Below are positions 12,044-24,228 of a stretch of DNA of 24,228 bases, in pieces. Below the pieces are notes generated by a model. That model worked only from the letters and a program-made list of their open reading frames with translations. It did no database searches and was not told the origin of the DNA. This stretch comes from a virus. Lineage: Duplodnaviria > Caudoviricetes. Where the stretch lies: the IMG/VR virus record IMGVR_UViG_3300020045_019965, positions 1 through 24,228 of that record; one strand, 5' to 3'. Numbering within the stretch: position 1 is the first letter of the stretch; each line of letters starts with the position of its first letter. A program made the position numbers and the translations under genes.

Positions 12044-12574
12044 TTACCAATTAGATTTTTGTTTTGGAGCATTCATAGCTTCGGCGATTGATTTTTTGAG
12101 TGATTCAATAGCTGCCAAAGTTTTTTCTTTATACGTTTCGTTTATACTTCTGGGCTTTCCGTTTTTTTTATAATAAGCCTCTTCACTAAACCAGTCAGAT
12201 GCGGGGAAGTTTCCATATTGCCCCGGGTAGGTGATGTCATAAATCTCATATTTATATCTACCATCCTTTGCTTGTATCTTTATTGAAAAGCTCATGGTAA
12301 TGTTTGTGAGCAACACGGTAAAATTAGTGTTACCCTTGCCTATTATTGTGCCCGTATCTTTGTCTTCCATCTCAATAACATTCTTAGCAGACTTAAAATT
12401 GTTTGCGAAAAATATTTTGGCACGGGCATAAAGCTCTGCCTGGCTTACGCTGTCTACAGCTACGACCTGATTAAAATTAATTGCCCCAGCTTCATCTACA
12501 GGAAAATCTTTAATAATCTGCGCATTTAAAGCACACATAAAAAACAACAGAACGAGTGTAGTAATTTGTTTCAT
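12044..12574 (-). CDS. Secreted DUF4468-like protein (moron)
   Basis: Signal peptide MKQITTLVLLFFMCALNAQ, followed by ELYARAKIFF..NFKSAKNVIEMEDKDTGTIIGKG and IKIQAKDGRYKYEIYDI, the DUF4468 pattern. It has its own terminator. Confidence 0.75.
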   Translation of the reverse strand: MKQITTLVLLFFMCALNAQIIKDFPVDEAGAINFNQVVAVDSVSQAELYARAKIFFANNFKSAKNVIEMEDKDTGTIIGKGNTNFTVLLTNITMSFSIKIQAKDGRYKYEIYDITYPGQYGNFPASDWFSEEAYYKKNGKPRSINETYKEKTLAAIESLKKSIAEAMNAPKQKSNW

Positions 12575-12716: not shown

Positions 12717-12923
12717 CTACTGCTTTTTTATCCGTTCCCTAAACGGATATTCTTTATTTAGATCAGTAATATACCGGCTTAGCCCGTCTTTATTTTGCAG
12801 CACATCGTTTAATGTAATGGTGCCGCGATCATCAGACAGGTATTTGTGCAGCAGGTCTTCATATTCTTTTATCCGGGCTTTTAATGCTGCATCTACAGCC
12901 TCGGCATCGTATTCTTTTTTCAT
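12717..12923 (-). CDS. Hypothetical protein (68 aa, moron)
   Basis: ATG-started ORF preceded by a -7-like TACCTTTA (12950-12943) just downstream of a terminator. Confidence 0.65.
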   Translation of the reverse strand: MKKEYDAEAVDAALKARIKEYEDLLHKYLSDDRGTITLNDVLQNKDGLSRYITDLNKEYPFRERIKKQ

Positions 12924-12952: not shown

Positions 12953-12984
12953 AAAAAACCGCCCCTACTAAAAGCAGGGGCGGC
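12953..12984 (-). terminator. Intrinsic terminator after the 93-aa gene
   Basis: CCGCCCCT/AGGGGCGG stem followed by T6 on the - strand. Confidence 0.8.
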
Positions 12985-13025: not shown

Positions 13026-13307
13026 TTACTCCTTTAACCTGGCAGCGAGGTGTGCTTTTATAAATATATCTTTCCTGATATCACGGTCGTAATTATAAGG
13101 CTTTGCCGGGGCAGGGCTTATTTCGCGTTTACCAGCCTGCGGGTTTGTGGGCGCATAGGTAATATACACATCAATAACAATCGGAGCTGGCGGAGAAAAT
13201 ATTCGCACCACGGGGTAAGGTTGTACTTTATCTGCTGCAGCAGCGTTGCAGATGCCTAAAGACAAAAAGAAGAGTACCAGCGGTACCAAAAACTTAAATA
13301 ATTTCAT
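13026..13307 (-). CDS. Small secreted Pro-rich protein (93 aa)
   Basis: Signal peptide MKLFKFLVPLVLFFLSLGICNAAAA; has its own TGTCCTA promoter and terminator. Confidence 0.7.
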   Translation of the reverse strand: MKLFKFLVPLVLFFLSLGICNAAAADKVQPYPVVRIFSPPAPIVIDVYITYAPTNPQAGKREISPAPAKPYNYDRDIRKDIFIKAHLAARLKE

Positions 13308-13401: not shown

Positions 13402-13434
13402 TTTGTTAAACCTGCGGATATTTTTGTAAATTTG
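13402..13434 (+). promoter_or_regulatory. Host-type (Bacteroidetes primary sigma) promoter, antisense to the late operon
   Basis: TTTG (13402-13405) - 21 bp - TAAATTTG (13427-13434) matches the -33/-7 consensus. Confidence 0.75.
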
Positions 13435-13437
13435 CAG

Positions 13438-13766
13438 TATCAACTTGTTACCATACCCACAGTAGGTATATTAAGCTAGTGAATTTTGATAGGAGTTCCT
13501 GACTAGAACTACTTAGCAAATAACTAAATTAAATATGAAGATAATTAAACAACTCCCTCGAGTTCGAAAGAAATCGTAGCTTCATTAGCTTAAAAAGATA
13601 AACCCCCCGCTATCCTGATAACGGGGGGTTTTAGTTGCCACGTAGTGGGGCAGCGGCGGGAGGTAAGCGCAAGCGTAGCCTTTTAGAGCCATACGGCAAA
13701 GTCCGAAAGGACGCTTTAACCACGCTTGCCATCTAATACTTACTGCAGATGGATACCAAGTTGATA
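13438..13766 (+). ncRNA. Candidate large structured RNA / regulatory leader of unknown family
   Basis: Closing stem TATCAACTTG (13438-13447) / CAAGTTGATA (13757-13766). Further stems: 13471-13483/13581-13593 (13 bp), GGAGTT/AACTCC, 13600-13609/13622-13631 (10 bp), GTTGCC/GGCAGC and GGCAA/TTGCC. GNRA hairpins GC-GCAA-GC (13667-13674) and GTCC-GAAA-GGAC (13701-13712). Confidence 0.65.
13535..13579 (+). CDS. Possible 14-aa leader peptide (uORF)
   Basis: MKIIKQLPRVRKKS* preceded by an A/T-rich Bacteroidetes-type initiation region; lies inside the loop closed by the 13-bp stem. Confidence 0.3.
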   Translation: MKIIKQLPRVRKKS

Positions 13767-13874
13767 GACGGGGTTCCTCACCAGCTAATATTCCGCACTT
13801 CACGCCTAGTCAACGGGAAAAGGATATATGCGAGGCCCGGTTCTGCTTTCCCTATTTGGGTACCTATAGTATAA
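13749..13874 (+). CDS. 41-aa basic small protein (not in ORF track)
   Basis: MDTKLIDGVPHQLIFRTSRLVNGKRIYARPGSAFPIWVPIV* fills the space between the structured RNA and the terminator. It has a protein-like beta-hairpin pattern (LVNGKRIY). Confidence 0.55.
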   Translation: MDTKLIDGVPHQLIFRTSRLVNGKRIYARPGSAFPIWVPIV

Positions 13875-13899
13875 CCGAAAAACAAAACTTTTAGTTTAT

Positions 13900-13927
13900 A
13901 GCGAGTTTTCAGGGGCTCGCTTTTTTT
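13900..13927 (+). terminator. Intrinsic terminator of the antisense unit
   Basis: AGCGAG/CTCGCT stem, extendable by G-U pairs on the + strand, followed by a T-tract. Confidence 0.8.
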
Positions 13928-16615: not shown

Positions 16616-19267
16616 TTAGATCTCTTTATTATTAACTATAGAAAACGACATTAGCGTAATATCATCGGCAGCGCTTGCCAGTTGTCCTGTAATGAAAATA
16701 TAATTTGTAACGGCCGGATTAAAGGATACAGAAGATATAGCCGCAGTACTTACCGCAGTATCAGTTAAAGCTGTTAGCCCTGTAGAACGTATTACCGAGC
16801 CTGTAAAATCTAATTTCGTACGTTCGAACGGTGCATACCTGGATGTTGCCGCTACAGTACCGCTTGCAATAGTAGAAGCCCCGGTAAGTGTGTTTGATGT
16901 GTTTGTTTTTATACGTATCGACTTGGTTGATGCAAGGCCCGTTGCGCTTACCATAGTCGAAAGATCCAAACGAAGCATACCTTTAGATACCGTGTTTGCA
17001 GGTACGGTTATTACAGCCAGTATTTTTTCTGTTGTACCATCGACCGAACCTATTACACTATCAGAAAGGCCTGCTTTTGAAGCAACGACCTTTGGTACGG
17101 TTGAGTGAACAGCCGCTGTGTACAAAGGGTCAATACTGATTACAGGTGCTACAGTTCCGTTTGTTACTATTATTTCTCCTGCTGCACCTGCCACAGAAGC
17201 AATACCACTACCTGTAATATCTCCTTCGCCTCTTATTGATTGCCCGTTAACGGTTTTAAACGTTAAATCATCCTTAAAATCAGTTAGGTATATTTTCTGT
17301 TTTTCCTTTTCAACTTTATTAGGAGGCGTACCTGTAGATGAGTAATTTTCTATAACCTTTTGGAACGTTGTGAAATCATCATACTTGCACGTCCAAAGCC
17401 CTGCTGTTGCAGAACCTTCTCCATTTAACCATATTTCCCCATATCGGGTAATAGTATTGTCGTTAGTAAACTGATTCGTTAGCGGAATACTTTCCTCCAA
17501 TGATAGCGTTGCGGCATTTATTCTAATTAAAAGTTTATTTGCTTCAGTTGTTCCTGTAGTATGATAAATCAATTTTCCGTTAAAAACACTTATCCAGTGA
17601 GGTATCGGGTTAGACGGATACACCGCGCCGGTACTAACATCAAGTCCTGTAACTTCGCGCTTTATTTGTAACGTGTTCATATCGCAAACAATTACCCCTG
17701 TTTGGTTACGCGTAATATCACTTGAAGCGTTAACGGTAGGGATATAGGCTTCATCATTATAAATTACAAAAGGTGTATTTTGGTATATCCTACGCCCTAC
17801 CGACTCCGTACCTGCAATGTTTATCTTTTCAAAATTTGTTAAATTTTCATCAACCCTTATAAAATACGACACGAAAGCGTTAGACGCGCTAACACCGCTG
17901 GTCATTAGCATATACAGTTTATTTTTGTAAGCAGTTATATATGTTGTAGCGCCTAAAAAAGGCACGGCAACAACTTCATAATCGCTTAAGTCGTAAAGGT
18001 TTGCTTTTACTACCTGTGTTGCTATGGTAGAAGATGATGTTCGGGTGCATAAGTAAAAGAAACCCCTATGTAAAACCGACCCGTGAAGTCTTGCAGACGT
18101 AACGCCGGTAATTGTTACACCTTCCAGCAATTGAAACTGATAAGTACCAACCGTCAGAACGTTCTTTATTATTTTACAATTCCTTAGAGCCAATAAGTAA
18201 AATTTATCCTCACCCTCAATATAGGATCTGCCCTGTATAAAAATATCATTATCAATATAATCAACCCATCCAAAATCTATAGAGGCTGGTAAATAAGAAC
18301 TCAAATCTAAATACCTGTACTCGTCTGTTTTATACATCAACGTCTTAGGAGATACAGACTGAGATAAAGTAGACAGGAAAAAATCTTTTGGTAAATCTTT
18401 TGGCAGGGCTTCGATATCACTTACCATGGCAAAAGTATCATCAGCGGGCTTTGCAGGGACTGTATGTGTTACGGTTTCCGGATTATCTGCTGGTAATGCT
18501 TCAAATTCAATTCGCGCCTTTTTACCAACTGCCTGTTTGCTTTCAATGCCTCTGCCATCAACGTCAATAAAATTGCCTGTTTCAGTATCTAACCACGCCG
18601 TTGTTTGGTCTGTAATTGTAGAACCCGCTGCCATTACCTGATTAGCATTTGGGATGTAGATAGCTGGTGCGGTAGTATCGGGACCTGCCTCAAAATTAGC
18701 ACTGGTAAGCATCGTAGGATAGCTGCCGCCATAGAACCCGTTAGGCCCTTTAAAGTAGACCATGTACGTATGGCCATCATAACTATACCTGAAAAAATAT
18801 ACCAGGTCAGGGTTGCTCAGGTCGCGGTCATCGCTATTGGCTGCAGGAAGGTAATCGGCGGTATTTATAGTACCCAGTTCGATTACTTCAGTATTGCCGC
18901 TACTGGCCACGTCTGCAGGCGTGGCATTTTGAGGGCAGAAGAAAAATATATGATCTTCAGTAACCGGTGTGCCACCGTGGCCCCACTTACCTTTACCAGG
19001 TCGGAAGAGATAAATATACTTACGTACCGGCATCGTACCCAGAACAACAACAGCAATAACTACCGGCGTTTGAATTTCCGAAACGATCAACGTTACGCCA
19101 TTTACCAATATAGCTACCTGGGCTTCGGTTAATGGCTGGCCATCATTATCGGTTACTGTAAAAGATATATCTGCAAGCTTATTGTTTTGCTGAAATTCAA
19201 CCCCCGGGTTATCGCCATTATCTTCGCACCCGCATGCTGCATTTGTTGATGTAGTGTGTACTCCCAT
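16616..19267 (-). CDS. Tail fibre / receptor-binding-like protein (883 aa)
   Basis: Modular protein with a central beta-rich, propeller-like region, the fibre motifs FKTVNGQSIRGEGDI and SVAG..GEIIVTNGTVAPVIS, and a Ser/Thr-rich beta C-terminal domain. Confidence 0.7.
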   Translation of the reverse strand: MGVHTTSTNAACGCEDNGDNPGVEFQQNNKLADISFTVTDNDGQPLTEAQVAILVNGVTLIVSEIQTPVVIAVVVLGTMPVRKYIYLFRPGKGKWGHGGTPVTEDHIFFFCPQNATPADVASSGNTEVIELGTINTADYLPAANSDDRDLSNPDLVYFFRYSYDGHTYMVYFKGPNGFYGGSYPTMLTSANFEAGPDTTAPAIYIPNANQVMAAGSTITDQTTAWLDTETGNFIDVDGRGIESKQAVGKKARIEFEALPADNPETVTHTVPAKPADDTFAMVSDIEALPKDLPKDFFLSTLSQSVSPKTLMYKTDEYRYLDLSSYLPASIDFGWVDYIDNDIFIQGRSYIEGEDKFYLLALRNCKIIKNVLTVGTYQFQLLEGVTITGVTSARLHGSVLHRGFFYLCTRTSSSTIATQVVKANLYDLSDYEVVAVPFLGATTYITAYKNKLYMLMTSGVSASNAFVSYFIRVDENLTNFEKINIAGTESVGRRIYQNTPFVIYNDEAYIPTVNASSDITRNQTGVIVCDMNTLQIKREVTGLDVSTGAVYPSNPIPHWISVFNGKLIYHTTGTTEANKLLIRINAATLSLEESIPLTNQFTNDNTITRYGEIWLNGEGSATAGLWTCKYDDFTTFQKVIENYSSTGTPPNKVEKEKQKIYLTDFKDDLTFKTVNGQSIRGEGDITGSGIASVAGAAGEIIVTNGTVAPVISIDPLYTAAVHSTVPKVVASKAGLSDSVIGSVDGTTEKILAVITVPANTVSKGMLRLDLSTMVSATGLASTKSIRIKTNTSNTLTGASTIASGTVAATSRYAPFERTKLDFTGSVIRSTGLTALTDTAVSTAAISSVSFNPAVTNYIFITGQLASAADDITLMSFSIVNNKEI

Positions 19268-19271
19268 GCCT

Positions 19272-19307
19272 CAAAATTGATGTATTTATGATTTTTTAAA
19301 TAGGACA
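19272..19307 (-). promoter_or_regulatory. Late-promoter motif copy 3 (TGTCCTA-N21-CAATTTTG), ATG 4 nt downstream
   Basis: Heptamer at 19307-19301, -7-like box at 19279-19272, start codon at 19267. Confidence 0.75.
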
Positions 19308-19312
19308 GTGTT

Positions 19313-20242
19313 TTACATTCCAAAAACAGCATTATTCACGTTGGGCGTGCGCACAGTGTTTGCCGTGGCAGGGAGCGCGTTAGGGTAATCTGTGAAAGAA
19401 TTAGGGTTGTCGGATATTAACCTTTTAGCCATAGCCAGATAATTACCTGCATTTTCTTCGGCTTTTCGGGCGGTCGTACTTAAAAAGTCTTTATTCACTT
19501 CCTGCACTTTATCATTAGGCAGCTGGTCAAACTGTATTTTAATGCCGGCAGGGGTAATAACAAACAAGCCCTCTTCGCAAATCTTGGCTACAGTAAAATG
19601 TACAAGGGCTTTTTGCAGGGTTCGTTTAAGACTTGTTTGCACATCATCCAACACACCCGTTTTTAAATGCTGGAGAAGCTCAGCAGAAAAGACATAAAGG
19701 TGCTGGTCTTCGAGTTGCCTTAAAGAAGGCTGTAACGCCAGGTAGGTTTGCCTACTATCAAAAATTGCGTAGTACTTATTAAATGTTGATGTGCTGTTAA
19801 CCAGTAGTTCGGTCTGCTCTGTGTAAAGTTCAGACCCTGCCCAGCCAGGAAATAGCGTTTTGTTTTTTTCCATCAGAGCCAGAAGCATATCCATAGCCGT
19901 ATGACCTGCTTTTAAAAAACCGCGCCTGATATCATTTTGCTGCTGCCATCCTACAGGCTGACGTTTTTCATTTACAGTACTTGCAGGGCCGCTGCTGTCT
20001 ATTTGTACACTGCCTACAGGAAAATAAATGTAAAATGCGAAGTTTGTAAGGGCTGATTGCAGGTAATACCGCGCCTTGTTTAGTACATCTGCGCCTATCG
20101 CGGTAGCTTCATCAGCTAAAACTACATGTAGATCGCCTACATAACGGGCAGTATATTGGTCTACAGCCATGGTAATGTACGGTTCAATGGCCTCAAAAGG
20201 AAAGGATTTCATTACAGACACGTGTTTTTTTATGTCTTCTAT
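19313..20242 (-). CDS. DUF6712-like phage protein (probable head-tail adaptor) lacking its first six codons
   Basis: Similarity to the copy starting at 22080 (MAILST-IEDIKKHVSVMKSF) extends to 20242 and then breaks, so the true ATG is missing. The gene normally follows the portal, as at 22080. Confidence 0.7.
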   Translation of the reverse strand: MEDIKKHVSVMKSFPFEAIEPYITMAVDQYTARYVGDLHVVLADEATAIGADVLNKARYYLQSALTNFAFYIYFPVGSVQIDSSGPASTVNEKRQPVGWQQQNDIRRGFLKAGHTAMDMLLALMEKNKTLFPGWAGSELYTEQTELLVNSTSTFNKYYAIFDSRQTYLALQPSLRQLEDQHLYVFSAELLQHLKTGVLDDVQTSLKRTLQKALVHFTVAKICEEGLFVITPAGIKIQFDQLPNDKVQEVNKDFLSTTARKAEENAGNYLAMAKRLISDNPNSFTDYPNALPATANTVRTPNVNNAVFGM

Positions 20243-20740: not shown

Positions 20741-22080
20741 TGAAAGATGTCATAGTAAGAAGTATACCAAACGGCATCGCGGCCGCTAAATCAAGTGGAA
20801 ATGCAGGGGTTGATATCGTTACCACTGTTCAGTTAGAGGTCAAAGATAAATCCAGTGGTATTTTAGTATCGTGGGGCAAGAATAACGACATCCCGCAGCA
20901 GATATTTGCCCAGGCAAAACAAAATGGTAGTGTTAGTAATGCTCTGCGTATTAACCGAAAGGCCCATTACGGTAAAGGCTTTATACTTTATCGCATTAAT
21001 ACCAGTACCGGCAAAAAGGAAATTGAAGTAATAGGCGATGATGATGCCTCGGCTAATGCTATTTTTGAACTGTTCAGAAAATCACAGATGCCGAAATTCT
21101 GGCGTGAAACTATTGCCGACTTAGAGGCCTGGTCTATTGCATTCCCGGAATACATCCTTAGCGAAAATTTTGAAACGATCAACCGGGTTAACCGTCAGAA
21201 AGCTGCATGGTGCCGTTTTGAGATACCGGATGAAAACGGAATAATAAATCATGTTTATATATCTCAAAAATTTGGCCGCGAGGGTGCATCTGTCAGCATT
21301 GACAGCAAATTTGTATCGCAGGTAGATTATATCGATCCTGCATGGAACGCTGAACAGGTTAAGGAGCATTGTAAAAAACATAAGATTAAAAAATTCATTC
21401 GCCCGGTGTTTTACCCTATGGTAGATGAGGCATTCTACCCTAATGCAGAATGGCATTCTATTTTTGAAAGCGGATGGCTGGAAGTTTCAAACTCAGTTCC
21501 GGAATATAAAAAGCACTATTTTAAAAATATGTCTTCGCCTAAATACCAGGCCGATGTAGATGAGCGCTATTTTGAAACCATATACCGTGAGCAGTGGTCA
21601 ACGTTTACGTTTGAGCAGCGCGATGAAATCAGGAAAGCCTTTGATACCGCAATTGTTAATGGTTTGTCGGGTAATGAAAATGCAGGTAAGCTGATCAGGG
21701 GCATTATGCTTGTTGATGATAAAGGCCAGCCATACCCTACCCTCACCATCAAGGCCATCGAAGATGGTACTAAAGACGGCCAGTACCTTGCAGAGGCAGA
21801 ATCTGCGAACGGCGAAATTTATGCAGCCCTTGGTGTAGACGCCTCAATGACCACAGGCGGGGTGCCGGGCGGTAAGCTTGGTGCAGGCAGTGGTAGCGAT
21901 AAGCGCGAAGCCTTTAATATACTACAGGAGCTTAAGGCCTCAGACCGCGAAACTACCTTAGAGATTTTCGACTTTATGAAAGAATACAATGCCTATCCTG
22001 CTGACATCAAAGGCGGGTTTGAAAACATTGTGCTCACTACCCTTGATGTTAACCCTACCGGAATCCAAAAAGCAATATAA
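20740..22080 (+). CDS. Phage portal protein (446 aa)
   Basis: Size and the motifs WGKNNDIPQ, FYPNAEW, LSGNENAGK, I..ALGVD and GSGSDKREAF are typical of Bacteroidetes prophage portals. Confidence 0.78.
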   Translation: MKDVIVRSIPNGIAAAKSSGNAGVDIVTTVQLEVKDKSSGILVSWGKNNDIPQQIFAQAKQNGSVSNALRINRKAHYGKGFILYRINTSTGKKEIEVIGDDDASANAIFELFRKSQMPKFWRETIADLEAWSIAFPEYILSENFETINRVNRQKAAWCRFEIPDENGIINHVYISQKFGREGASVSIDSKFVSQVDYIDPAWNAEQVKEHCKKHKIKKFIRPVFYPMVDEAFYPNAEWHSIFESGWLEVSNSVPEYKKHYFKNMSSPKYQADVDERYFETIYREQWSTFTFEQRDEIRKAFDTAIVNGLSGNENAGKLIRGIMLVDDKGQPYPTLTIKAIEDGTKDGQYLAEAESANGEIYAALGVDASMTTGGVPGGKLGAGSGSDKREAFNILQELKASDRETTLEIFDFMKEYNAYPADIKGGFENIVLTTLDVNPTGIQKAI

Positions 22081-22421
22081 TGGCTATACTTTCTACCATA
22101 GAAGACATAAAAAAACATGTGTCTGTAATGAAATCTTTTCCTTTTGAGGCCATTGAGCCTTACATTACCATGGCTGTAGACCAGTATACAGCCCGTTATG
22201 TTGGCGATTTACATGTGGTTCTAGCAGATGAAGCCATCGGTGTAGATGCAGTCGTACTCAATAAGGCGCGGTATTACCTGCAATCAGCCCTTACAAACTT
22301 CGCATTTTACCTTTATTTTCCTGTAGGCAGTGTGCAAATAGATAGCAGCGGCCCTGCAAGTAGTGTAAATGAAAAACGCCAGCCTGTAGGATGGCAGCAG
22401 CAGAATGATATAAGGCGCGGT
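22080..22421 (+). pseudogene. N-terminal fragment of a second, diverged DUF6712-like allele
   Basis: Near-identical protein to 19313..20242 up to NDIRRG, then joined to inverted tail-fibre sequence. Confidence 0.85.
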
Positions 22422-23616
22422 GCAATTCATTACCGTGCAGGCGTGGAGACGAAACGCCATCGATGGTAACACCTTCAAGCAATTGGAATTGAGAACTACC
22501 AACCGTCAAAACATTCTTTACTATTCCGCAATCCCTGAGCGCTAAATAATAAAATTTATTATCCGTCAATGATCGGCCTTGTATAAAAATATCGTTATCA
22601 ATATAATCTATCCATCCAAAATCTATAGAGGCAGGCGGTAAATAAGCACTTAAATCAAGATACCGGTTTTCGTCCGTGGTGTACATAATTGTTTTAGGCA
22701 GCACAGACTGAGAAAGAACAGCCAAACGTAAATCTTTCGGCAAATCTTTTGGCAGGGCTTCGATATCGCTTAGCATTGCGTGCGTATCATCCTGATCTTT
22801 TACAGGATATTTATACTTTACAAGGTCAGGGTTGCTGCCGGGAATGGCGGGAAATTCAACTAAGAATTTTTTACCATTGGCCTGTTTGCTTTCAAGACCT
22901 TCAGAACTCACAACAATGCGATTACCGTTTTCAGGATCTACCCACGATGTGGATTTGCCAAATATGTCTGCGCCTTCCTGCATCACTTCATCGGCATTCG
23001 GGATGTAGATAGCAGGTGCGGTAGTATCGGGACCCGCCTCAAAATTAGCGCTGGTAAGCATGGTAGGATAGCTGCCGCCATAGAACCCATTAGGCCCTTT
23101 AAAATAGACCATGTAAGTATGGCCGTCATAACTGTACCTGAAAAAATATACCAGGTCAGGGTTGCTCAGGTCGCGGTCATCGCTATTGGCTGCAGGAAGG
23201 TAGTCGGCAGTAGATAAGGTGTTCAGCTCGATCACTTCAGTATTGCCACTATTGGCCACATCTGCCGGGGTGGCATTCTGCGGGCAAAGGAAAAATATAT
23301 GATCTTCAGTAACCGGTGTGCCACCGTTGCCCCACTTACCTTTACCAGGGCGGAACAAATAAATATATTTACGCACGGGAACCGCGCCCAGGACAACGAC
23401 CGCAATAACTACAGGTGTCTGTACTTCCGAAACAATTAAAGTAAGGCCGTTAACTAATGTAGCAACGTCGCCCGCGGTTAAGGGCTCACCATCATTATCT
23501 GTTACCGTAAAAGATATATCTGCAAGCTTATTGTTCTGCTGAAATTCTACACCAGGATTTTCAGTGTCTCCGTTGCATCCGCATTCGCTATTGTTAGCGG
23601 TTGTATGTATTCCCAT
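22416..23616 (-). pseudogene. N-terminal ~400 aa of a second, diverged tail-fibre allele
   Basis: Aligns with 16616..19267 from MG(I/V)HTT to RLHG..LHR and is truncated at the junction 22416-22421. Confidence 0.85.
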
Positions 23617-23620
23617 GCCT

Positions 23621-23656
23621 CAAAATTGATGTATTTATGATTTTTTAAATAGGACA
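23621..23656 (-). promoter_or_regulatory. Late-promoter motif copy 5 (homologue of copy 3)
   Basis: Identical to 19272-19307 although the flanking codons carry many synonymous changes. Confidence 0.75.
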
Positions 23657-23662
23657 GTGTTT

Positions 23663-24076
23663 TTACATTCCAAAAACAGCATTATTCACATTGGGTGCGC
23701 GCACAATATTTACCGTAACAGTAAGCGAGTTAGGGTAATCTGTGAAAAAATCAGGGTTATCAGATATTAATCTTTTAGCCATAGCCAGATAATTTCCTGC
23801 GTTTTCTTCAGCTTTTCGGGCGGTCGTATTTAAAAAGTCCTTATTAACTTCCTGCACCTTATCATTAGGCAGTTGGTCAAACTGTATTTTAATACCGGCA
23901 GGGGTAATAACAAACAGGCCCTCTTCGCAAACCTTGGCTACCGTAAAATGTACAAGGGCTTTTTGCAGGGTTCGTTTCAGACTGGTTTGCACATCATCCA
24001 ACACACCCGTTTTTAAATGCTGAAGAAGATCACCAGAAAAAACATAAAGGTGCTGGTCTTCGAGTTGCCTTAAAGA
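23663..24076 (-). pseudogene. C-terminal fragment of a diverged DUF6712-like allele
   Basis: Aligns to 19313-19726 (SLRQLEDQHLY...NNAVFGM); the 5' part is replaced at the junction 24070-24076. Confidence 0.85.
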
Positions 24077-24228
24077 GCATTGTAAAAAACATAAGATTAA
24101 AAAGTTTATACGTCCCGTGTTTTATCCTATGGTAGATGAGGCATTCTATCCTAATGCAGAATGGCATTCTATTTTTGAAAGCGGATGGCTGGAGGTATCT
24201 AACTCGGTACCGGAATATAAGAAGCATT
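24070..24228 (+). pseudogene. Internal fragment of a second portal allele (runs off the window)
   Basis: KEHCKKHKIKKFIRPVFYPMVDEAFYPNAEWHSIFESGWLEVSNSVPEYKKH is identical in protein to 21361-21516. Confidence 0.9.

Follow-up and report, generated by a model that had tools for sequence, protein, structure and literature searches.

A conserved structured leader predicted to lock its own 41-amino-acid gene in phages and mobile elements of Flavobacteriales type

The mRNA of the type I toxin-antitoxin system hok/Sok folds on itself and is silent at full length, and hok/Sok, aapA1/IsoA1, and most type I toxin families encode small hydrophobic membrane peptides. In the C4 and CI systems, short loops of a leader-derived RNA pair downstream in the same transcript and silence a small gene. 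The C4 RNA of P1 and P7 and the CI RNA of P4 are named as RNase P substrates (PMC5499578), and the C4 antisense RNA is listed as Rfam family RF01695 (PMC2864571). In aapA1, the full-length mRNA is silenced by its fold, and kissing loops and 3' processing are involved (PMC5416894). AbiD1 has a leader with an internal terminator and a short transcript, and its structure-limited translation is switched on by a phage protein or by cold (PMC2661086). In AbiF/RCd22, silencing by a leader RNA with an internal terminator was tested experimentally (PMC12373285).

The window (the whole stretch of DNA analyzed, 24,228 nucleotides) covers 24 kb of a temperate phage and includes genes for an integrase, a tape measure protein, an M15 endolysin, a holin, and a portal protein; the virus record from which it comes is 27% complete. 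Within the late region lies a unit of ~490 bases that comprises a promoter, a leader of ~310 nt, an ORF of 41 amino acids (aa), and a terminator. The unit is on the + strand, opposed to the surrounding minus-strand late genes, as a first-pass annotation made from the sequence alone had described. Its features are the following.

13402..13434, + strand: Bacteroidetes primary-sigma promoter, with -33 TTTG at 13402-13405 and -7 TAAATTTG at 13427-13434
13438..13469, + strand: 5' anti-start element (5' strands of P1/P2), pairing with 13757-13766, 13749-13752 (start codon), and 13736-13745
13471..13593, + strand: P3 stem 13471-13483:13581-13593, closing a variable A/U-rich domain (predicted fold and comparison)
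13494..13510, + strand: P3a hairpin, with loop 13500-13506 complementary to mid-ORF 13806-13812 (kiss K1)
13600..13638, + strand: P4, central GC hairpin, terminator-like in both directions, with loop 13613-13618 complementary to 13909-13914 (K2)
13634..13730, + strand: P5 (13634-13639:13649-13654, from covariation and fold) and the variable P6 domain (13662-13730)
13749..13874, + strand: ORF of 41 aa, a basic all-beta protein of an unnamed family, with motif xIFRxSRxVNGKxIY...FPxWVP
13797..13823, + strand: mid-ORF hairpin, with loop 13806-13812 (codons L-V-N) as the K1 target
13900..13927, + strand: 3' intrinsic terminator, stem-loop 13900-13921 plus a T-run, with loop region 13909-13914 as the K2 target

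Elsewhere in the window, three small minus-strand genes (12044-12574, 12717-12923, and 13026-13307; one DUF4468) occupy the interval between the unit and the tail genes and look like further cargo, and a strong hairpin terminator is located at 12958-12984. The right end carries second, diverged, and broken copies of the 883-aa, 302-aa, and portal-region genes (22291-23616, 22080-22469, 23663-24004, and 24030-24227; the regions compared are 16616-20221 and 22080-24227), which appear to reflect either duplication or a chimeric assembly of two related phages. A search for loci related to the neighboring 165-aa gene obtained none.

The unit is bounded by a promoter and a terminator. TTTG and TAAATTTG are separated by 21 nt, as previously claimed, and agree with the Bacteroidetes -33/-7 consensus TTTG/TANNTTTG (PMC6847099). 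The spacing of 4-5 nt given in the same source places the predicted transcription start at 13439-13440, so the start annotated earlier, 13438, is near but 1-2 nt early. The + strand terminator is present where it had been placed, as a stem-loop (13900-13921) followed by a T-run.

The leader is predicted to fold into a multibranched structure. Folding of 13436-13770 has a z of -6.97, with 0 of 100 shuffles as good, and the pairing 13438-13447:13757-13766, the 13-bp stem 13471-13483:13581-13593, and the 10-bp stem 13600-13631 drawn in the first pass are all present. Two GNRA tetraloops that had also been drawn (GCAA and GAAA) can be formed but are outside the minimum-energy fold and are unconserved in homologues. 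Likewise, the description of an RNA followed by an ORF names two elements that are both there but understates their overlap, as the start codon and codons 3-6 are themselves part of the closing helix. The reverse strand of the same region folds equally well (z = -7.39), with 16 G-U among 105 pairs versus 7 among 115 on the + strand; G-U mismatches, once offered as a sign of the + strand, do not serve as one here, and the strand is unreadable from the window sequence alone. We assign the unit to the + strand because of its promoter, ORF, and terminator, and because of U-G/U-A variation in homologues. An Rfam search of the window returned nothing at the gathering threshold; relaxing it to E<=10 added just terminator-like matches below that threshold. 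The units in 14 related loci had no match on the unit itself, in keeping with the earlier statement that the RNA belongs to no known family; the sole Rfam match in these loci is Flavo-1 in L023, >1 kb from the unit. Direct repeats in the window are just short two-copy ones of 9-15 nt, with no tandem repeated protein-binding motifs.

The unit recurs as 14 distinct Flavobacteriales-type units, which are the window unit, L008, L015, L016, L018, L029, L030, L033-L038, and L044. Duplicates (L031 and L032, identical to L015, and L039, identical to L030) and rows outside the family (L007, L019, L045, and probably L052; L010-L014 are integrase N-termini) were left out. The first relative came from a degenerate motif scan, and later alignments added viral contigs, genomes, and metagenomes; the closest named relatives of the window unit are Flavobacterium and Chryseobacterium records. 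Each unit has a -7 box, a leader of 258-337 nt, the ORF, and a terminator, and the box is TAnnTTTG at this distance from the ATG in 14 of 14 units if the near matches of L033 and L044 are counted.

Across units, the shape of the leader is conserved and its letters are not. Leader identity to the window is 0.50-0.60, versus 0.49-0.57 for shuffled leaders. The order of helices is identical in 12 of the 12 units folded and consists of the pairing of the 5' end with the first codons, a stem closing the variable A/U-rich domain, the GC hairpin P4, P5, and P6. Compensatory changes in the stems, proposed in the first pass as a check on the RNA, were found in 14 units: 94% of cells in P4/P5 are paired, 8 of 15 pairs change on both sides (5 of 7 in P5), and slid controls give 42-59%. 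The alternation of U-G and U-A in P4/P5 of homologues favors the + strand.

Searches on the RNA and its DNA found few further copies. RNA model R1 matched 2 of 150 Flavobacterium-genus genomes, both training loci, and detected no ORF-less copy of the RNA in the remaining 148; each genome that matches the unit has one match. Among annotated phages and plasmids, blastn and tblastn found chance matches only, and DNA patterns built on the core of the window unit gave 0 loci. An exact terminal-repeat pattern found 5 loci in viral contigs, none matching the unit by nhmmer, and L001, L002, and L005 among them were read as giant-virus tandem repeats. In two of these contigs (L002:1700-3842 and L005:1700-3130), palindromic repeats with a unit of ~52 nt form long tandem arrays. 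In sequencing run X1, one 247-nt contig corresponds to 13447-13692 at 98%, with nothing else of 19.9 kb, and runs X2 and X3, from two unrelated studies, contain homologues of the P4-P6 core (13587-13685, ~92%) with different flanks; these contigs have no bearing on ends, strand, or expression.

The first ~200 nt of the RNA hold three elements that are complementary to the downstream half, and each varies with its own target. The first ~32 nt (anti-start) pair with positions -20 to +30 of their own ORF with a mean energy of -23.0 kcal/mol, versus -9.7 ± 4.0 kcal/mol for noncognate ORFs. The cognate ORF is the best in its row for 12 of 14 units, and 0 of 100,000 permutations were as good. The predicted cost of opening -15 to +18 around the AUG in the window is 18.1 kcal/mol in the full RNA and 10.3 without the 5' half. 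Over the 14 units, opening the initiation region costs 7.4-20.7 kcal/mol versus 3.8-11.1, and the cost falls after trimming of the 5' half in every one. An mRNA fold that sequesters the initiation region, one of the criteria of type I toxin-antitoxin systems, is therefore found here by prediction and covariation.

The second element, K2, is the complementarity between the P4 loop and the 3' terminator. It was proposed from five units before seven more (L029, L030, and L033-L037) were retrieved, and it amounts to at least 5 Watson-Crick bp in all 12 test units (p 1e-5; chance probability per unit of 0.013-0.108). The paired sequences fall into the classes CCUGA/UCAGG, CCCGA/UCGGG, CCUUA/UAAGG, and CCUGU/ACAGG. 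K2 is also present in the held-out units L038 and L044, giving 14 of 14 units and 5 classes, as L044 adds CCAGA/UCUGG; in L044, the target is in the 3' arm of a terminator hairpin that is long, outside the apical loop.

The target of the third element, K1, is the loop of a hairpin in the ORF and derives from three codons ending in a conserved Asn. This hairpin is weakly paired in the window and well formed in local folds of the 13 other units. With a fixed leader window and a target set from the protein alone, K1 spans 6-8 Watson-Crick bp in 13 of 14 units and 9 target classes; L015 has just 4 bp. The cognate sum is 93 (permutation mean of 62.8) and was never reached in 200,000 permutations, for a match that was spotted by eye on the very units tested, with L017 as the sole outside check. 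With one unit for each of the 9 target classes, the sum is 59 versus 39.6 (p 1e-5), which lessens, and does not fully correct for, the relatedness that all of these permutation tests ignore. L030 and L036 have a second 7-bp leader match elsewhere in the ORF. In the divergent unit L017, both K1 (7 bp, P 0.025) and the anti-start pairing (z -5.2) are retained, and no K2 was seen by eye.

Comparison among units thus bears out the helices, three covarying complementarities, a real coding sequence, and the co-occurrence of RNA and ORF. The structure first described for the RNA is confirmed, but the description had missed the two covarying loop-loop complementarities, K1 and K2, which on comparative grounds are its most distinctive feature. 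The predicted fold and its contacts are very probably real.

P4 resembles a terminator in both directions. On the + strand, 5-7 of the 8 nt after it are U; the U-tract of the minus strand (5-7 of 8) is at least as good, and termination at P4 on the + strand is uncertain. A stop there is predicted to yield an RNA of 172-236 nt (198 in the window) that includes all three complementary elements, and its first 25 nt are predicted to be unpaired at 0.44-0.75, versus 0.10-0.39 in the full RNA. Mainly because all three complementary elements precede P4, we infer that a short RNA may act in trans. Attenuation by an upstream ORF was considered and is not supported (a uORF of at least 7 codons ends near P4 in 7 of 14 units versus 4.2 expected, p 0.09).

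The ORF at 13749-13874 is under purifying selection. In 27 core codons of the 14 units, pN/pS is 0.057 and pairwise differences number 590, 433, and 1424 on codon positions 1, 2, and 3. The protein has 44 related proteins at E<=0.01 but no family match in Pfam, PHROGs, NCBIfam, PADLOC, or PDB sequences; 4 of 16 relatives match the unnamed phrog_4533 weakly. AlphaFold2 predicts five beta strands and no helix (pLDDT 95.6). The net charge is +4 in the window and +4 to +9 across units, and maximum KD19 is 0.36 in the window and 0.11-0.97 across units, with no membrane helix. Fold searches, in which so short a query searches weakly, gave nothing at E<=0.001 and a best Z of 2.2. The best BFVD rows are uncharacterized phage proteins, the ESM Atlas has unnamed clusters of 37-42 aa at 0.87-0.90 (low recognition, a lead only), and phmmer against 1.84 billion representatives gave 1 match. 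No toxin-like family or fold match was found in the sequence-family and fold searches. The family is rare, even by counts that include short-leader members, distant members, and a few false matches. For the genera of G001 and G004, these are 6 of 401 and 3 of 240 genomes, respectively; for the order, 5 of 351; for the phylum, 10 of 400; and for the class of G1323, 2 of 151.

Units are associated with mobile and defense genes. Phage, transposase, integrase, or defense markers are near 11 of the 12 units scanned (L036 is ambiguous), a tally biased by loci drawn from a viral collection. Phage lysis or head genes are near the units of the window, L008, L015, L018, L029, and L034, IS1595 transposases are near L033 and L037, an integrase is near L016, a putative AbiC gene is near L030, and an Argonaute gene is near L035. 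In L035:1-2610, genes for a prokaryotic Argonaute (Piwi) and for NOV_C precede the unit, and these surroundings are likely a defense island.

The protein family extends beyond the lock. L025-L027 (e.g., L027:1416-1660) encode members with a C-terminal CHHC/CYYC-type motif and a short leader near IS1595 transposases; in L027, the upstream region pairs just past the stop codon (z -3.1). Judged from predicted pairing, these loci are a second RNA architecture for the family. The full lock is missing from L025-L027, L009, and L056. In a clostridial-type viral contig (L009:2273-3123) and an alphaproteobacterial genome (L056:1501-2752), a member immediately follows genes for an HTH protein and for an IrrE/ImmA metallopeptidase (Pfam Peptidase_M78 in L009; the HExxH and Xre-like ORFs of L056 were read by eye), and these members are possibly an unannotated third gene of Xre-IrrE modules. 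In three genomes of Bacteroidota (centers of L028, L053, and L054), distant members immediately follow ribonucleotide reductase genes. L049:1268-1680 has a zinc-finger-like N-terminus, pairing of the 5' end with the start, a strong terminator at its center, and a loop that matches the 3' untranslated region over 6 nt, and is possibly a third version of the lock. In a test that scored 10 of 12 distant members (L054 and L055 were outside it), nine besides L017 had no significant mid-ORF match, and anti-start pairing among these nine was detected in L049 alone (z -2.3). The protein can therefore exist without the lock. A convergent 57-aa ORF, which we take to resemble C. difficile type I toxins, adjoins a clostridial homologue (L006:577-750).

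The best reading of the unit is an mRNA that silences itself, with a leader that would hold back an effector and may also be released as a short RNA. A silenced toxin- or Abi-like mRNA is favored over an independent RNA because the main pairings of the leader target the ORF and terminator. Silencing of the ORF by the leader is likely. The fuller reading, a mobile one-promoter gene whose doubly kissed and untranslated mRNA would hold back a likely toxic 41-aa protein until a trigger, is tentative and has slightly less than an even chance; the weak link of the silenced-effector model is the action of the protein. The initial suggestion of a lysogen RNA and small-protein module holds for a conserved module of structured RNA and ORF, but a conserved minus-strand promoter and a hydrophobic helix, expected of classical type I systems, are lacking.

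In the proposed mechanism, P1/P2 would form once the start codon is transcribed and block initiation, as Bacteroidetes initiation is tuned by local structure (PMC6847099). K1 and K2 would then clamp the full-length message, and because K2 needs the terminator to be transcribed, it would mark a complete mRNA. Part of transcription likely stops at P4 and would yield an RNA of ~200 nt with three antisense elements and a freed 5' end, which could silence other copies in trans and so act as an antitoxin from the same promoter. Translation could be unlocked by loss of the short RNA, end-trimming, or a phage RNA-binding protein, and the trigger is probably phage infection or transcription shut-off. 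The basic beta-sheet protein, with no membrane helix, may act on a nucleic acid or protein target and arrest the infected cell, with abortive infection or maintenance of the element as the predicted outcome. It is rather doubtful that the unit represents a new type of single-promoter, RNA-controlled defense or addiction system, with a 5' half antisense to three sites, two kisses, an antitoxin released by leaky termination and acting in trans, and a new non-membrane effector family. If it does, specificity between co-resident elements would be encoded in the loop sequences.

An alternative that appears unlikely keeps the RNA lock and makes the protein a regulator (anti-repressor-like or a DNA/RNA-binding switch), with the short leader RNA as an immunity factor against incoming matching units in the manner of P1 C4 or P4 CI. 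It would account for short, unit-specific loops complementary to downstream sites of their own transcript, for a basic protein, and for distant relatives directly after HTH and IrrE/ImmA-type peptidase genes. However, C4-family covariance models from Rfam match neither the window nor related units. The unit also ends at its own terminator after the 41-aa ORF, with no icd/kil or antirepressor gene downstream and no match to such families, units are in late regions and transposons rather than immunity regions, and Foldseek matches to HU/IHF are insignificant (E ~2.6).

Improbable, too, is a full-length folded RNA that functions as a scaffold or sensor, with the 41-aa protein as an RNA-binding cofactor limiting its own synthesis (an RNP or a type III-like pair). 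Units share little primary sequence in the leader, whereas RNAs that bind ligands or catalyze reactions usually keep theirs; conservation lies in the complementarity of the leader to the ORF and terminator, and the protein family occurs also without the RNA. In favor of this reading are the compact tertiary fold that two kissing loops and multibranch helices would give, the small arginine/lysine-rich beta structure of the protein, and the precedent of the leader RNA RCd22, which binds the protein encoded downstream of it (PMC12373285).

A classical type I system would require a second strand. A minus-strand RNA, or read-through from a convergent late operon, would end at P4 and kiss its loop, and the terminator loop of the mRNA would mimic the antitoxin loop and shield the mRNA until 3' trimming, with aapA1/IsoA1 as the precedent for 3' processing and kissing loops (PMC5416894). 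P4 would be a good minus-strand terminator, and a convergent lysis or late operon faces the unit in the window, L008, L015, L018, and L029, but L030, L035, and L037 have no convergent neighbor. A strict minus-strand TAnnTTTG is absent from 11 of 14 units, the window included, which may have a non-consensus promoter instead, and in the other three it is 182-319 nt past the ATG in unrelated places. In addition, K1 and the anti-start pairing require no second strand and the protein has no membrane helix, which makes this arrangement decidedly improbable. Lastly, a non-autonomous, MITE-like DNA repeat with folding as a by-product, as might be suggested by the TA-bounded 10-bp terminal inverted repeat and by strands that fold equally well, is largely refuted, as its "ends" vary among units and track ORF codons, matches are one per genome, the ORF is under purifying selection, and the exact-ends pattern found just giant-virus tandem repeats.

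The self-silencing mRNA reading is directly testable in F. johnsoniae because covarying loops of 5-9 nt allow exact swap-and-rescue mutants. In the literature searched, the peptide motifs of the protein are in no paper, queries on kissing and terminators gave analogues at most, and there is no description of RNA-silenced small-gene modules in Flavobacteriales or of kissing by an mRNA leader with both the coding sequence and the terminator loop of the same mRNA. Three P4 motifs are absent from the searched supplement files of PMC10690425 and PMC8040213, whose largest files, outside the search, may list the RNA unnamed.

The locus shares parts of its design with each of the closest described systems. 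Like AbiD1 of Lactococcus lactis, it has a gene behind a structured leader with a candidate internal terminator (PMC2661086). In AbiD1, the initiation region spans 76 nt and contains local hairpins as well as a ribosome-binding site (PMC2661086), whereas the leader of the window is ~310 nt and pairs into the ORF and terminator, and the 41-aa product has no Abi family match. Like AbiF/RCd22 of a Clostridioides difficile prophage and type III toxin-antitoxin systems, it is prophage-borne and has one promoter for a leader and a read-through mRNA, the short RNA being a prediction here (PMC12373285). RCd22 acts in cis and in trans, as proposed for the leader of the window, and neutralizes the large AbiF by binding through repeated motifs (PMC12373285). 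In contrast, the leader of the window is complementary to the mRNA itself and has no tandem repeats, no AbiF homology was found, and the 41-aa product, with no Pfam, NCBIfam, or PADLOC match, is no large toxin of the Abi_2/AbiF or ToxN type.

With aapA1/IsoA1 (PMC5416894) and hok/Sok, the unit shares loop-loop recognition and a small ORF whose long mRNA folds on itself and, in the unit, is predicted to be silent at full length. Those systems have an antitoxin on the opposite strand, whereas the unit has no conserved antisense promoter and its complementary loops are on one strand; its product, unlike type I toxins, is a predicted soluble beta structure. As in C4 and CI, leader loops are complementary to downstream sites of the same transcript, but the host range is Bacteroidota, the targets include a coding-sequence hairpin and a terminator loop, there is no icd/ant operon, and the unit is located in a late region or as transposon cargo. 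Because it departs from AbiD1, AbiF/type III, type I, and C4/CI systems in some of their defining features, the unit is filed as a member of none. On the comparative evidence, it is a real, probably RNA-locked small-gene module without description in the literature searched. Two additions would follow: a new family of small proteins, whose relatives in Clostridia and Alphaproteobacteria neighbor IrrE/ImmA peptidases, and a translation lock, compact and programmable, for a phylum in which Shine-Dalgarno sequences are not used.
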